The position numbers and the translations under genes were made by a program. From NCBI GenBank assembly GCA_965198235.1, contig OZ240248.1:4128001-4192000 (forward strand): a stretch of DNA of 64,000 nt. Reading direction: 5' to 3'. How positions within the stretch are numbered: position 1 is the first letter of the stretch; every line of letters begins with the position of its first letter. The notes below the pieces were generated by a model. It was not told the origin of the DNA and made no database searches. It saw nothing but the letters and a program-made list of their open reading frames with translations. Shown here one piece after another: positions 26,486 to 47,551 of this stretch. Origin of the DNA: Candidatus Poribacteria bacterium. GTDB taxonomy: Bacteria > Poribacteria > WGA-4E > WGA-3G.

Positions 26486-27118
26486 GTGCTTAATTTGTGT
26501 ATGCTTTCCGGTTCTTTTGAATACGATTCCGAGGTATCTTTGACGATCTTCAAAACGTTCGTTGAAAAACACTATCCGATCCAAGCGAATTTAGTTGTCT
26601 ACAATTCAGAAGATCACGACCCTTCTTTAGCAGCGTTAGATGATGCAGATGCGCTGTTGGTTTTCACACGCCGTCTCAATACAGACGGAGCATCACTCAG
26701 AGAATTTCAAGCGTATTGTGAACACGGCAAGCCTCTCGTTGGTGTCAGGACAGCCAGCCACGCTTATCAAAACTGGTTGGAATTTGATAAAACCGTGCTC
26801 GGAGGCGACTATCAAGGGCATTACGGCGACGGTCCCCCCACTCACATGGAATTGATTGCGACAGAACATCCTATCCTGAACGGCATTCCAGCGTTTGAGT
26901 GTTATGGAAGCCTTTACAAAAACCCATCACTCCGCGACGATACCTCGCTACTGTTGATGGGACATACCGGTGAACATTCAGAACCTGTCGCATGGACGCG
27001 TCTGCATAATGGCGGACGTATCTGTTATACTTCATTAGGGCACCAGAAAGATTTTGAAGTAGAACCCTTTTTGAGACTCCTCGCGCAAAGCATTTTGTGG
27101 GTATCAGAACGGATATAG
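26486..27118 (+). CDS. ThuA-like domain protein
   Basis: VFTRR, VGVRTASHA, EPVAWT, YTSLGH. Confidence 0.85.
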   Translation: MLNLCMLSGSFEYDSEVSLTIFKTFVEKHYPIQANLVVYNSEDHDPSLAALDDADALLVFTRRLNTDGASLREFQAYCEHGKPLVGVRTASHAYQNWLEFDKTVLGGDYQGHYGDGPPTHMELIATEHPILNGIPAFECYGSLYKNPSLRDDTSLLLMGHTGEHSEPVAWTRLHNGGRICYTSLGHQKDFEVEPFLRLLAQSILWVSERI

Positions 27119-27144
27119 GAAAAAATTCAAGGCACTTTGGAGAT

Positions 27145-28404
27145 ATGGAAACACTGACGATTGTGAATGGCGACATCTATACCCCAACGCATTATGGCCA
27201 CGGAAGTATCGTCATTCAAAACGACAAAATTTCAACGATAACATCAGAGGCACTGCAACCATCAGGGGAAACTATCTATGCCTCCGGATGCCTTGTCATT
27301 CCGGGATTGATTGATGGATTGGTGCACGGTGGCGGTGGCTATGATAGCATGACGGGTCACGTTGAAGACGTTGCGACAATCGCGCGAGCACATGCACGCA
27401 GCGGTGTCACCTCGTTGGTGTTAGGAATCTCCTCGGGGAGCATGGCACAAATCAACAGTGCCTTAACTGCTATTGCACACGTCGTTGACGAACCCGTAGC
27501 AGACGGTTCTCGGATTTTAGGGTCGTACGTGGAAGGAAAATTCGGGAGTCTCGCCAAAAACGGCGCGCAGAACGCGAAATACATTACACCGCCGAACTTT
27601 GAAGAATTCCATGCGATGTGGGCGGCTTCCGATGGCACCTTAAAGGTGATCTCCATCGCGCCAGAAAACGATGAAAATCTCCAGTTTATCAAGCATCTCG
27701 CGACCTTTAGAACAGATGCCTATAATAACATCGTTATCGCGATGGGACACACAAACGCGACATATCAACAGGCGATGGATGCGATTGACACAGGCGTGAC
27801 ACGCGCCACCCACACTTACAATGGTATGAGTGGGATGCACCACCGCACACTCGGTGCAGTTGAAGCAGTCCTCTCCCACCCAGACATCCACGCAGAACTC
27901 ATTGTCGATGAACACCATGTCCACCCTTTCTGGGGAAATAACCTCATCCAACGAAAAGGGATTCACGCCGTTGGGTTAATTACAGACTGCACAGAACTCG
28001 CCGGTGTCCCCGCAGAAGACTGGCAAACCTCGGCAACATATATCCCCGAGCTTGATGCCTATCGCCTCAATGAAGATACGATTTCTGGACACAACACAGC
28101 CTTTGAGAGCAATAGTACCGAGAAATATGTCCGTAACGGAGCGGTGTGGTTGGATGTAGGAGAGCCTACCGAACGCCTTGCGGGTGCAACAATTACACTT
28201 ATGGATGGTGTTCGTAACGTTATCAACTGGGGACATTCTCTGGAAGATGCCTTAACAATGGCGACTTTAACACCGGCGCGAAATTTAGGCGTTGCAGATT
28301 CGGTAGGTTCAATCGCAACCGGTAAAACAGCAGATCTCGTTATTGTTGACGAAAATTTGAGCGTTCAAACGGTTATTTTAGGCGGAAAATTACTAAAACA
28401 GTAG
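27145..28404 (+). CDS. NagA-like amidohydrolase (divergent N-acetylglucosamine-6-phosphate deacetylase)
   Basis: PGLIDGLVHG, EGKF, APE, MGHTNA, THTYNGM, TD, TPARNLG, GKTADLV. Confidence 0.8.
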   Translation: METLTIVNGDIYTPTHYGHGSIVIQNDKISTITSEALQPSGETIYASGCLVIPGLIDGLVHGGGGYDSMTGHVEDVATIARAHARSGVTSLVLGISSGSMAQINSALTAIAHVVDEPVADGSRILGSYVEGKFGSLAKNGAQNAKYITPPNFEEFHAMWAASDGTLKVISIAPENDENLQFIKHLATFRTDAYNNIVIAMGHTNATYQQAMDAIDTGVTRATHTYNGMSGMHHRTLGAVEAVLSHPDIHAELIVDEHHVHPFWGNNLIQRKGIHAVGLITDCTELAGVPAEDWQTSATYIPELDAYRLNEDTISGHNTAFESNSTEKYVRNGAVWLDVGEPTERLAGATITLMDGVRNVINWGHSLEDALTMATLTPARNLGVADSVGSIATGKTADLVIVDENLSVQTVILGGKLLKQ

Positions 28405-28587: not shown

Positions 28588-28608
28588 GCCCCGCGCGGGG
28601 CTTTTTTT
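28588..28608 (+). terminator. terminator-like hairpin in the rpsL leader (possible attenuator)
   Basis: GCCCC-GCGC-GGGGC followed by T7. Confidence 0.6.
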
Positions 28609-28652
28609 ATTTCTGTCACAGACCCGTAGAGACATTACTGTGGAGGTCCGAA

Positions 28653-29024
28653 ATGCCGACAATTAATCAGTTAATCAAAAAACCGCGCAAAAGGTCCCGG
28701 AAAAAAACAAAATCTCCGGTACTGGAGCAGTGTCCCCAGCGGCGCGGTATCTGTCTACAAGTGAAAACAGTAACGCCGAACAAACCGAATTCCGCACTGC
28801 GTAAAGTCGCTCGGGTGAGGTTCACCTCTGGCTACGAAGCTACTTGTTACATTCCGGGGATCGATCACAATTTGCAAGAACACTCAGTCGTTTTAGTCCG
28901 GGGCGGGAAAGTGAAAGACCTCTCTAATGTGCGTTACCACATCGTCCGCGGCAAATTGGATACAGCAGGTGTCGATAACCGTCGCCAAGGTCGTTCAAAG
29001 TACGGCGCACGGAAACCGGGTTAA
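28653..29024 (+). CDS. rpsL: 30S protein S12 (atypical loops)
   Basis: [24 protein letters not shown]. Confidence 0.98.
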
Positions 29025-29042
29025 ACAACGGAGGAAGAGTAG

Positions 29043-29513
29043 ATGCCGAGACGTGGAAACATCAGCAAACGGGATGTAAGCCCTGACGCGAAATATAACA
29101 GCAAGCTCGTGTCAAAATTCATCAATAGCCTCATGTTGGATGGAAAGAAAAGCACCGCGCAATCGATCCTATATGAGAGTTTTCAGATTATTGAATCCCG
29201 GGCGAACGAAGATGGCTTCGCCGTGTTCCGTCAAGCAATCAACAACGTCAAGCCGGTGTTGGAAATCAGACCTCGACGTGTAGGCAGCCAGACGTATCAA
29301 GTCCCTGTTGATGTAAAAGCAGAACGGAAACAGCGGTTGGCTTTTAGTTGGATTATTCAATCTGCTCGCGCCCGCGGCGAAAGACGGATGGCAGAACGCC
29401 TCGCAGGCGAAATACTTGAAGCGTCACAGAACGACGGCGGCGCGATCCGCAGGAAAATGGATCAGCATCGAATGGCAGAAGCTAACCGAGCTTTCGCACA
29501 TTACCGATGGTAA
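29043..29513 (+). CDS. rpsG: 30S protein S7
   Basis: [26 protein letters not shown]. Confidence 0.98.
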
Positions 29514-29568
29514 AAATGCCTCACGGTTTATAGCCGAAGCGTTAACACACAAAAGGAGTCGTCCAACC

Positions 29569-31686
29569 GTGGCGAACAAAAAAAATAGCGACCCACAACG
29601 CTTAGAACTGCCCCACATGCGAAATATCGGCATCATGGCACACATTGATGCCGGGAAGACCACTGTCAGCGAACGCATTCTCTATTATACCGGTAGAGTC
29701 TATCGGATCGGGGACGTAGACGATGGCACCACAACTATGGACTGGATGGTGCAAGAACAGGAACGCGGCATTACGATTACTGCCGCCGCAACAACCTGTC
29801 AGTGGAAAAAACACCAAATCAATATCATTGATACACCGGGGCATATTGACTTTACCGTCGAAGTTGAACGCTCACTTCGCGTCCTCGACGGTGCAGTCGC
29901 GGTTTTCTGCGCAGTCGGCGGGGTTGAACCTCAATCTGAAACTGTTTGGAGACAAGCAGATAAATACGACATACCTCGAATCGCATTTGTCAACAAAATG
30001 GATCGAACCGGTGCCGATTTCTTCCGCACTGTTGAAATGATGGAAGAACGCCTCGGTGCCACAGCCATCCCAGTGCAACTTCCAATCGGTTCAGCAGAAC
30101 AATTCACAGGTATCGTAGACCTCATCTCCATGAAAGGGCAGATCTGGAACGTAGGAACAGACGCTGGTAGCGATGGCACTGTCATCCAAGAGACAGACAT
30201 CCCCAAGGAAATGGAGGAAATGGCAACCGAATACCGCGATCGGATGTTAGAGGCTATCGCCGATTACGATGACGAACTTATAGATAAATACTTGGACGGT
30301 GTCGAAGCTTCACCTGAAGAGATTAAAGCAGGAATACGAAATGCTGTAATTGTTGGCAAAGTCGTCCCAATCCTGTGCGGAACTGCTCTAAAAAATAAAG
30401 GCGTACAACCCCTCTTAGACGCGATTGTCTCCTATCTACCCGCACCCACCGACATGCCACCTGTCGTAGGGTTTAACCCGAAGACCGAAGAAGAGGAAGC
30501 GCGTCCCCCAAATGATAATGAACCTTTCTGTGCATTGGCGTTCAAGATTACCACAGATCCACACGTCGGCAAACTTACTTATCTGCGTGTGTACTCCGGC
30601 ATCCTCAATAAAGGGAATACCGTCTACAACAGTAAAACTGGGAAACACGAACGAATTGGGCGGCTCATGCAGATGCACGCCAACAAACGGGAAGAACACC
30701 AAGCCGTTCACGCAGGCGACATCGCCGCTGTAATCGGGTTAAAAGACCTCTCAACTGGTGATACACTCTGCGATCCGAAGGCACATATCACATTAGAAAC
30801 GATGGTGTTCCCGCTGCCGGTGATGGCTATCGCCATTGAGCCCCGCACACAATCTGATATTGACAAACTCAACCTCGCCCTCTCGAAACTCGCTGAAGAA
30901 GATCCGACATTTAAAGTGCATCAAGACAGCGAAACAGGACAAACATTATTGTCCGGTATGGGTGAACTTCATCTTGAAATCATCGTCGATAGGCTCGTGC
31001 GTGAGTTTAACGTCTCCGCGAATGTTGGTAACCCACAAGTCGCCTATCGGGAAACGATCCTCAAAGCAGTTAAGTCTGTGGGACGTTTCATACGTCAATC
31101 TGGTGGTAGAGGTCAATTTGGGCACGTTGTGATCGAGGTTGAACCCATGGAAAAAGGGACAGGCTTTGAGTTCATTGACGCAACCAAAGGTGGCGTTATT
31201 CCGCAAGAATACATCCCAGCAGTCCGGAAAGGCATTGAGAACGCGATGAATACGGGTGTCTTGGCTGGCTACCCAGTTGTTGATGTATCAGTAAAACTGG
31301 TAGACGGTTCGCATCACGCCGTAGACTCATCAGAAATGGCGTTCTTCATCGCTGGTTCGATGGCGTTTAAAGACGCATTGAAGCGTGCGACCCCGACACT
31401 CCTTGAACCAATTATGGACGTTGAGGTTATCGTCCCCGACGAATACCTCGGTAAAGTGATAGGTGATTTGAATTCGCGGCGGGCACAGATACGTCAGACA
31501 GAAACGCAAGCGAAATCTCGTATTCAAGTTATTCATGTTGATGTCCCTCTCTCAGAAATGTTTGGGTACGTCAAAACCCTTAGGTCCCTCACACAGGGCA
31601 GAGCGAACTACTCTATGGAGTTTGCACATTATAACGAAGTCCCGACAAGCGTGATGGAAGACTTAATTTCATCAGCGAATCGTTAA
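29569..31686 (+). CDS. fusA: elongation factor G
   Basis: [31 protein letters not shown]; GTG start after AAGGAG. Confidence 0.98.
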
Positions 31687-31919: not shown

Positions 31920-33119
31920 ATGGCTAAGGAAACATTTGATAGGAATAAGCCACACGTCAATGTTGGAACAATCGGCCACGTTGACCACGGTAAAACAACG
32001 TTGACGGCAGCAATTACTATGGTGCTCTCAAAACTCGCCAACGCAGATTACGTCATGGAGTATGACGAGATCGACAGGGCACCTGAAGAAAAAGAGCGTG
32101 GTATTACCATTAACACAGCACACGTTGAGTATGAAACCGAGAACCGGCATTACGCACACGTAGATTGCCCCGGACACGCCGACTATATCAAGAATATGAT
32201 TACCGGTGCGGCACAGATGGACGGTGCGATTCTCGTCGTATCCGCCGCTGATGGTCCTATGCCTCAGACACGTGAGCACGTGCTACTCGCGCGGCAGGTG
32301 AACGTGCCATCTCTCGTCGTCTTCCTGAATAAGGCAGACATGGTTGATGACGAAGAACTGCTTGAACTCGTCGAATTAGAAGTTCGCGAATTACTCAGCG
32401 ATTATGACTTCCCCGGTGACGACATTCCTGTCATCATAGGGTCTGCTCTTGACGCGATGGAATCCGGAGGCGATCCGGAAGGCGAAGCATGTCAGTCTAT
32501 TCTCGAACTCATGGCAGCGGTTGATGAATACATTCCAGAACCCGTTCGCGATACCGATAGACCCTTCCTGATGCCGATCGAAGATATCTTCACCATCAGT
32601 GGACGTGGGACCGTTGTTACCGGTAGGGTTGAACGTGGAACCGTTGAAATCGGAAACACCGTTGAAATCGTCGGGTTACGCGAAACACAAGACACCGTTG
32701 TCACTGGTGTTGAAATGTTTAAGAAAAGCCTCAACGAAGGCCAAGCTGGCGACAACCTCGGTGCGCTACTACGTGGCGTCGAGCGCGATGAAGTCGAACG
32801 CGGACAAGTTTTGGCTATCCCCGGGACCGTTACGCCACATACGCAATTTGAAGCCGAAGCCTACATTCTCACAAAAGAGGAAGGCGGACGCTGGAATCCA
32901 TTCTTTAGCGGATACAGACCGCAGTTCTATTTCCGGACAACTGATGTAACCGGAGAGATGAACCTCCCTGAAGGCATCGAAATGATTATGCCTGGCGATA
33001 ATGCACAGATCACCGTAAGACTTGCTAAACCGATCGCGATGGAAGAACAACTCCGATTCGCAATTCGGGAAGGTGGACAAACCGTCGGTGCTGGTGTTGT
33101 CTCCAAAATTATTGAATAA
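31920..33119 (+). CDS. tuf: elongation factor Tu
   Basis: [26 protein letters not shown]. Confidence 0.99.
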
Positions 33120-46467: not shown

Positions 46468-46839
46468 TTGCGTGGAAGAAGACGAGAACGCAAGAACGTT
46501 CCCGAAGGTATCGCACATATACAAGCTACCTTCAACAACACAATCATTACAATCACAGACTTAAACGGGAACACTGTTGCTTGGGCGAACGCAGGGATGA
46601 CTTTCACAGGTTCACGAAAGTCAACGCCTTTTGCCGCACAACAGACAGCGGAAGCATGCGCCCGCAGAGCAATGGATCACGGCATGAAACGCGTGGAGGT
46701 TAGAGTCAAAGGACCCGGATCCGGGAGAGAGTCTTCTATACGAGCACTCGCTGCAGCCGGACTCGACATTACCTTAATGAAGGACGTGACTCCTATCCCA
46801 CACAATGGATGTCGTCCCCCTAAGAGACGACGGGTTTAA
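46468..46839 (+). CDS. rpsK: 30S protein S11
   Basis: [30 protein letters not shown]. Confidence 0.98.
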
Positions 46840-46915
46840 GTTGAGCCGCAACTCGACTCCGATACAAGACTTAAACGCACGAGTTGCGGGTCAAATTCAC
46901 ATACAAGGAGAGGGA

Positions 46916-47551
46916 ATGAGTAGATACTTAGATTCAGTCTGTAAATTATGCCGACGGGAAGGTGAAAAACTCTTTCTGAAAGGGCGTCGATGCAACGGAC
47001 CTAAATGTTCTTTTGAACGCCGCAGTTACCCGCCTGGCGAACACGGTCAGACACCGCCACGCAGAAGTCGCGGGGACAATTTCCGACGACAGTTGCGCGC
47101 AAAACAGAAAGTCAAACGCACTTACGGTGTTTTTGAGAAACAATTCCGGAACTATTACTTCAAAGCAGCGCGCCAAACAGGTATCGCTGGCGAGAATTTA
47201 ATTAGCTTCCTTGAACGCAGGTTAGACAACGTCGTTTACCGACTCGGGTTCGCAACCTCCCGAAATCAGGCGCGTCAACTCGTGAAGCACAACCACTTCA
47301 CTGTCAACGGCAAGCGGGTTAATATCCCATCTTATATCGTGAAAGTTGGCGATGTCATTATACCTCGCGAACGGAGCCGGAACCTTGCGACTATTCAAGA
47401 GGCATTAGAATACTCACAGCATCGCGGCGCACCTGAATGGCTCGAAATTGATGCGGACAAAGCAGAAGGGCGTGTTCAAGGGACACCCGTGGTAGAGCAA
47501 ATCGCCATCGACCTTGAAACGCAACTTATCATTGAACTTTACTCCCGATAG
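46916..47551 (+). CDS. rpsD: 30S protein S4 (Zn-binding type)
   Basis: CKLCRREG, PPGEHG, LERRLDNVVYRLG. Confidence 0.98.
   Translation: MSRYLDSVCKLCRREGEKLFLKGRRCNGPKCSFERRSYPPGEHGQTPPRRSRGDNFRRQLRAKQKVKRTYGVFEKQFRNYYFKAARQTGIAGENLISFLERRLDNVVYRLGFATSRNQARQLVKHNHFTVNGKRVNIPSYIVKVGDVIIPRERSRNLATIQEALEYSQHRGAPEWLEIDADKAEGRVQGTPVVEQIAIDLETQLIIELYSR

Follow-up and report, generated by a model that had tools for sequence, protein, structure and literature searches.

Asn43 in ribosomal protein S12 of a Poribacteria family, and changed 16S rRNA bases of the streptomycin pocket

Described S12 variants and the rpsL gene of the window

Few parts of the bacterial ribosome are as conserved as Lys43 of ribosomal protein S12 and bases 13, 526 and 915 of 16S rRNA, and replacement of this lysine by asparagine (K43N) serves as the textbook case of a resistance mutation with a fitness cost. 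In the classical literature the same change, as K42N, is a restrictive allele, and R43 is non-restrictive; S12 mutants at P90/G91 of E. coli and Thermus thermophilus are streptomycin-resistant, dependent or pseudo-dependent. In the Thermus 30S structure, streptomycin is contacted by Lys42 together with 16S bases 13-14, 526-527, 913-915 and 1490-1491. K42N lowers the growth rate of Salmonella by 22% (PMC5954217), streptomycin resistance has been linked to the 530 loop of rrs and to its 915 region (PMC6183457), and rrs A514C, C517T and A908C are reported from streptomycin-resistant M. tuberculosis isolates (PMC8402983). Base identity and spacing suggest that C517 and A908 of M. tuberculosis correspond to E. 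coli 526 and 915.

Intrinsic variants have been surveyed in a preprint (bioRxiv 10.64898/2026.06.09.731231) that examined 15,721 species for eight substitutions of rpsL, which affect positions 43, 86, 88, 91 and 92. This curated panel of high-confidence resistance substitutions counts 43N among its members and includes 91L and 92D, with S91 and N92 absent. A variant was present in 7.57% of species (88R in 830, 43R in 359, the remaining substitutions in 7 species), and rrs variants in 8 species; citing fitness costs for K43N, the authors call this change costly but K43R and K88R low-cost. Clade-fixed 88R or 43R is described there for Planctomycetia, Sphingomonadales, Devosiaceae, Wolbachia and Coriobacteriia. 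The main text of the preprint does not mention Poribacteria, and a literature search on Poribacteria and streptomycin returned no rpsL work among the matches listed, judged by title and abstract.

The window analysed here is a stretch of 64,000 nucleotides from a Candidatus Poribacteria genome, a metagenome-type assembly of 5.17 Mb in 2 contigs (96.3% complete, 5.3% estimated contamination). Its rpsL gene (28653..29024, + strand) begins with ATG at 28653 and encodes a uS12 of 123 residues (28653-29021) followed by a stop codon. The translation scores 116.6 bits with Pfam PF00164 (Ribosom_S12_S23; cut-off 22.3), and a phmmer search matches it to its nearest solved S12 chain at E = 3.4e-58. Columns 43/86/91/92 read K/R/P/G in the three solved S12 chains displayed in the gapless phmmer alignment, and because the E. 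coli chains align with an offset of one residue, K43 corresponds to K42 of the mature E. coli protein. The window S12 departs from the canonical residues at all four columns: codon 43 (28779..28781, + strand) is AAC, giving Asn within TPNKPNSA in place of the usual Lys; codon 86 (28908..28910, + strand) is AAA, giving Lys for Arg; codon 91 (28923..28925, + strand) is TCT, giving Ser for Pro; and codon 92 (28926..28928, + strand) is AAT, giving Asn for Gly. In addition, codon 71 (28863..28865, + strand) is GAT, such that Asp71 lies in GIDHN where other S12 proteins have G-x-G-H-N. The PNSA motif is kept, as are Lys88 and Asp89 (28914..28919, + strand; Asp89 is GAC, 28917-28919). A preliminary description of this DNA had named K43N, R86K, P91S and G92N, the GIDHN reading and the retained Asp89 beside the changed residues, and translation and alignment confirm each of them; the interval that it gave, 28779-28928, runs exactly from codon 43 through codon 92.

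The residue, its replacement and the single-base step from AAR to AAY are those of the K43N (K42N) mutants of E. coli, Salmonella and mycobacteria. However, laboratory and clinical K43N alleles are single changes in a canonical S12 that carry a growth cost, whereas the Poribacteria Asn43 occurs on a background of S91, N92, D71 and altered 16S neighbors and is inherited by 77 species, rather than being a single recent substitution in a wild-type S12. Like the clade-fixed variants of the preprint, the Poribacteria allele is a resistance-type S12 state fixed in a clade that predicts intrinsic resistance; it differs in that the fixed state is the costly 43N, that a single genus holds several alleles, and that the 16S pocket is altered as well. 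The low-cost residues 43R and 88R are both absent from the window allele (43N, K88) and are instead combined in a sister allele, R43-K86-R88-A91. Clade-fixed resistance-type residues such as 43R and 88R are therefore already known; the new elements are the fixation of costly 43N across a large clade, allele classes that coexist and are exchanged within one genus, and linked changes at near-universal 16S bases.

We give practically no credence to an artefact, whether through erroneous assembly or consensus, through a pseudogene, or through a duplicated rpsL whose canonical partner lies elsewhere. The metagenome-type assembly in 2 contigs and its estimated contamination could invite such a reading, but the frame is intact inside a complete, syntenic ribosomal operon, and the same S12 states recur in dozens of separately assembled species. 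PF00164 has one match in the whole genome, making rpsL the sole S12 gene of an assembly that is 96.3% complete, and a second copy is rejected on this ground. Assembly or read error at the altered codons is ruled out by identical contigs from other sequencing runs: those of sponge metatranscriptome RNA run X1 span 28639-28881 and 28871-29336, and those of runs X2 and X4 span 28725-28874, all with zero differences, and the matches listed from other runs contain no alternative letters at codons 43, 86, 91 or 92. The two objections raised in advance by the preliminary description, a canonical second rpsL and read-level error, were thus both checked and both fell away. Transcription of rpsL is likely rather than proven, because an RNA library can contain DNA. 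The T-run upstream of rpsL differs in length by one base in contigs of other strains.

The gene heads the str operon (rpsL-rpsG-fusA-tuf), the order of which is the same in 61 of 61 genomes compared. It is followed by rpsG for S7 (29043..29513, + strand; next after rpsL in all 61), fusA for EF-G (29560..31686, + strand, start approximate; part of the flanking sequence in the tree and recombination analyses) and tuf for EF-Tu (31920..33119, + strand), and then by the S10-spc-alpha ribosomal protein cluster, which ends with rpsD (about 46805-47551). All 28 reference operon proteins were found in synteny in each of the 61 genomes. Upstream, a GC-rich inverted repeat with a T-run, read by eye (28588..28608, + strand), looks like a candidate terminator between an amidohydrolase-like ORF (27097-28404) and rpsL.

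The 16S rRNA side of the pocket and the search for compensation

The single 16S gene of the genome (G000:C1:1250147-1251696, L197) was aligned to E. coli 16S together with those of 30 relatives from families f1, f2 and f3, and carries A13, A18, C20, A505, U526, G915 and U917. Three of these bases, A13, C20 and G915 (U13A, U20C and A915G), are present in 31 of 31 sequences, accompanied by the compensated pairs A18-U917 and C19-G916. At the pseudoknot pair 505-526, G505-C526 has been replaced in 29 of the 31 (A-U in 22, G.U in 4, G/A in 3), with G-C in 2; the G505/A526 combination occurs in both species with Ser43 (G094 and G093) and in G173. The Rfam RF00177 consensus has upper-case C18, U20, C526, A915 and G917 where this genome differs. 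Deeper lineages extend part of the pattern, as A13 and A18-U917 were found in 15 of 15 Poribacteria-like 16S sequences, and U20, A915 and G505-C526 persist in f11, the deepest lineage. For comparison, a base other than C at 526, scored in a 19-mer context, was seen in 1 of 401 genomes of another phylum, a denominator that includes genomes without an assembled 16S.

These changes can be set beside the 530- and 912-loop mutations of M. tuberculosis rrs. Under the mapping suggested above, U526 would be the same base change as C517T, and G915 would lie at the equivalent of A908, albeit A908C is another base change than A915G. Unlike those mutations, the Poribacteria changes are germ-line traits of a single rRNA operon; in most cases a co-changed A505 lies opposite U526, and G915 comes with A13 and C20. 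Literature searches found no paper on streptomycin with 16S A915G plus C526U, or with C526, A914 and G1491. The changed bases of this genome also fall in the sites of primers 27F, 515F and 907R/926R, and they explain mismatches of 'universal' primers for Poribacteria.

Several further 16S observations were made in the sampled assemblies. One of the two 16S genes of G088 (L291, G088:C232), a sixteenth sequence beside the 15 from deeper lineages, is 78% identical to that of the present genome and has all canonical bases; its contig is probably foreign and mis-binned. Family f8 sequences (L296, L299-L302) have U at 1491, in the helix 44 aminoglycoside site, and G056 has C1410-G1490 as well. Contigs G092:C2 and G004:C2 gave weak SSU rRNA matches of ~1.8 kb (472-546 bits), with six matches spaced about 8.86 kb on G092:C2; their appearance is that of a foreign rDNA array, perhaps from the host, that ended up in the genome bin.

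The species of genus g1 with Lys43, Asn43 and Arg43 have one common 16S pocket, and the RNA changes are for this reason permissive at most and not specific partners of Asn43. To the same effect, Lys43 has returned in 21 species on this background, which therefore does not require Asn43. Also weighing against the reading favored below, the A-U replacement at 505-526 is a compensated one, and the drug may still bind as before.

Compensation within the operon was sought by scanning, in 45 genomes of g1, all columns of the 28 operon proteins, to which L19 does not belong. Neither S4 nor S5 has a column that separates the S12 allele classes, which rejects compensation through either protein. The few columns that do separate the classes belong to SecY, L4, S11, EF-G and EF-Tu, and mostly follow phylogeny or operon mosaicism. 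The preliminary description had proposed fixed, compensated evolution rather than a single resistance mutation. Fixation stands, with Asn43 in 77 of 112 f1 genomes, substitutions nested at different depths and no paralog; compensation finds no support in the S4/S5 null result or in a 16S pocket common to the allele classes.

Modifying enzymes of the decoding centre were considered as well. Asp89, the target of RimO in other bacteria, is present in the window S12, and no RimO gene was found in the genome, where the best match to TIGR01125 scores 292 bits against a cut-off of 357. This best match (G000:C1:3534455-3535768, L289) is MiaB, with 476.7 bits to TIGR01574, and Asp89 is therefore probably not methylthiolated; at 96% genome completeness, absence of RimO is likely rather than proven. 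A second methylthiotransferase-like stretch (G000:C1:4457545-4458708) contains two internal stop codons. RsmG/GidB is present (151 bits), and loss of this methylase therefore plays no part.

Distribution and history of the S12 alleles

S12 was read from 30 relatives, 12 further members of family f1 and 9 deeper lineages. Asn92 and G[IV]DHN occur in every Poribacteria S12 read, across 10 families. Ser91 is found in six of the ten sampled families (f1, f2, f6, f9, f10 and f11) and Pro91 in the other four (f3, f4, f5 and f8); position 86 is Lys in f6 and f9, and position 88 is Arg in f8 and f11. All S12 read outside f1 retain Lys43. The f8 proteins read GG[NR]VRDLPNVGY; of the three available sequences, L193 has R86, and L189 and L195 have N86. 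Positions 91 and 92, with the initiator methionine counted, are those altered in the P90/G91 loop mutants; unlike these, S91 and N92 are not conditional mutants, because N92 is universal in the phylum and S91 is shared by several families.

A pattern census located Asn43 in 77 of 176 Poribacteria species genomes, all of them in family f1, with the following shares by genus: g1 33/65 (including the present genome), g9 3/3, g10 1/1, g12 1/1, g13 39/40 and g11 0/2. Asn43 is thus carried by most or all species of a clade, as in g13. The 112 genomes of f1 comprise 77 with N43, 21 with K43, 10 with R43-K86-R88-A91, 2 with S43 and 2 incomplete genomes in which no S12 was found. The K43 form within f1 is confined to genus g1. 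Ser43, encoded by AGT, is the state of both g11 species (G094 and G093; L153, L154), and the R43-K86-R88-A91-N92 allele (TPRKPNSA ... GGKVRDLANVRY) that of ten g1 species (G008, G013, G001, G010, G002, G019, G173, G138, G167 and G159; L143-L152), combining both classic low-cost substitutions, 43R and 88R, in one protein. The Asn43 codons are AAC or AAT, Ser43 AGT is one step from AAT, and the Arg43 codons, AGA or AGG, are one step from Lys. The allele with Arg43, Lys86, Arg88 and Ala91 (R/K/R/A) also varies synonymously at its own codons, and it is this synonymous variation within each state that indicates that Asn43 and R/K/R/A are old and maintained. Within S12, K101 accompanies N43, and Q101 accompanies K43 or R43.

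Such persistence of Asn43 through many speciations, together with the slow growth of K42N Salmonella cited above, would fit tuning of accuracy against speed, in which Asn43 persists because a slow-growing symbiont is well served by a restrictive ribosome, more accurate but slower, and streptomycin insensitivity is a by-product. We consider this explanation distinctly improbable, since N43 has given way to K43 or to the low-cost, non-restrictive R43 in close relatives whose genomes are of similar size, and S4 and S5 show no matching change.

Outside the phylum Asn43 is very rare. The N43 motif pattern, which demands flanking residues and may miss divergent S12, gave 111 matches in 185,579 species genomes, of which 69 are Poribacteria-type S12, 14 other S12 and 28 not S12. 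The 69 read N-R-K-S-N (65), N-K-K-S-N (2) or N-A-K-S-N (2) at positions 43-86-88-91-92. The 14 others, from Anaerolineae and Chloroflexia (4), Saccharibacteria (2), Streptomyces aureus, Nocardia inohanensis, Bacteroides gallinarum and five other MAGs, all have G92, and P91 except for T91 in two. The suspicion that the NKPNS/DLSNV variants might prove widespread is borne out inside Poribacteria; elsewhere it does not hold for N43. A Saccharibacteria MAG (G179, L077) with N43 and T91 in S12 also has A at 16S position 526.

To place these states in time, an operon tree was built with FastTree from 27 proteins of the operon that runs from rpsL to rpsD, without S12 (5176 columns, 61 genomes). Selection of the genomes favored long contigs and was not random, sampled kin are not independent, the support values are local, and the trees draw on one operon only. 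The outgroups f3 and f2 have K43; g12 plus g13, g9, g10 and the first clade of g1 have N43, whereas g11 has S43. Parsimony sets the Lys-to-Asn change on the stem of f1, because the outgroups are K43 and the basal f1 lineages N43 or S43, and the Lys43 of one g1 clade is on this placement a return. Positions 43 and 86 each change at least seven times on the tree, and rank joint fourth of 124 S12 columns by number of changes, after three surface positions. On the N43 allele, K86 occurs only at three separate tips (the present genome, G014 and G174), each of which has an R86 sister species, with AGA at codon 86 in the relatives; in these pairs rpsL is less diverged than its flanks (ratio 0.31-0.48). 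The R86 sisters and the low rpsL divergence mark these as separate in-place AGA-to-AAA mutations.

The R/K/R/A allele has another history. It is interleaved with K alleles in an eight-species ladder and also forms a separate five-species clade, and no intermediate between K/R/K/S and R/K/R/A was seen among the g1 S12 read. We compared divergence of rpsL with that of its flanks in 19 close pairs, with the five codons masked: same-allele pairs (n=14) gave ratios of 0.36-1.24, and the two pairs of a K with an R/K/R/A species gave 2.20 and 2.38, i.e. between G008 and its sister species the divergence of rpsL is 2.2-2.4x that of the flanks. In a codon-masked rpsL tree, the five clade B1 species that carry R/K/R/A group with clade B2 (support 99/95), and the rpsL data reject the operon-tree grouping at a modest AU p = 0.026. 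Several columns of L4, S11 and EF-G side with the rpsL tree, and the operon is therefore a mosaic. Recombination in the operon is indicated; a clean whole-gene import of rpsL is only partly supported, as other operon columns share its signal. In the eight-species ladder, residue 247 of EF-Tu is Pro in 4 of 4 K43 species and Thr or Ser in 3 of 4 R43 species, and S7 and EF-G, which lie between rpsL and tuf, show no break matching this pattern; it may reflect linkage, chance or a functional S12-EF-Tu coupling.

This history is also the ground on which direct antibiotic selection has to be weighed, that is, a process in which streptomycin-like or other decoding-centre ligands of the dense sponge microbiome cause S12 alleles at positions 43, 86, 88 and 91 to rise, recombine and be replaced in an arms race. 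The changing residues are the positions of the curated resistance panel (43, 86, 88, 91 and 92), four different residues occupy position 43 inside one family, and positions 43 and 86 are among those changing most often; the absence of intermediates to the interleaved R/K/R/A allele, the excess divergence of G008 rpsL over same-allele pairs and the AU rejection point the same way. Against this, Lys43, presumably the sensitive state, is back in 21 species, N43 is stable in 39 of 40 g13 species with no sign of turnover, the agreement of L4, S11 and EF-G columns with rpsL means that the exchange may not target rpsL, and drift in small symbiont populations can fix such changes. On balance we regard direct selection as unlikely. 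A wider form of the idea, in which the whole pocket (S12 and 16S) has been rebuilt, with several functionally different S12 alleles of one family recombining between species, as the trace of a long contest with a decoding-centre inhibitor produced in sponge holobionts, also seems to us rather unlikely. Antibiotic selection and accuracy tuning are not exclusive explanations.

Proposed order of events and meaning

The reading that we favor, with somewhat more than even confidence, is of a stepwise, co-evolved streptomycin pocket in which earlier S12 and 16S changes were permissive for Asn43, with predicted insensitivity to streptomycin. Four steps may be distinguished: (i) G92N and G71D, present throughout the phylum, would have come first, with U13A in helix 1 of 16S; (ii) U20C, A915G, replacement of G505-C526 (mostly by A-U) and P91S, all older than the family, would have followed in whichever order; (iii) K43N would have occurred on the stem of family f1; and (iv) R86K, from AGA to AAA, would be a recent change in the present genome's own lineage. 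The earlier protein and RNA changes may have altered or relaxed what Lys43 has to do, such that Asn43, usually a costly residue, could become fixed and persist, with later exchange for Arg43, Ser43 or Lys43. The viability of four residues at position 43, including a returned Lys, alongside the long stability of Asn43, argues that the earlier changes made this position tolerant. The outcome would be a ribosome unresponsive to streptomycin and with its own decoding balance. By analogy with mutants of several species, we are fairly confident that Asn43 should abolish the streptomycin response. The sequences themselves establish the residues, the single gene copy, the distribution of the states, their scarcity in other groups and the 16S changes; insensitivity to the drug, a permissive role for the older changes and effects on decoding accuracy are what we infer from these patterns.

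The survey of intrinsic rpsL variants is hereby extended to Poribacteria, and the predicted streptomycin insensitivity would be useful for enrichment attempts. For the family itself, a family of uncultured sponge symbionts, the finding means that Asn43 has been kept through dozens of speciations. Its relatives with Arg43 plus Arg88, with Ser43 and with a returned Lys43, all on a common altered RNA background, provide a natural series for tests of cost versus context.
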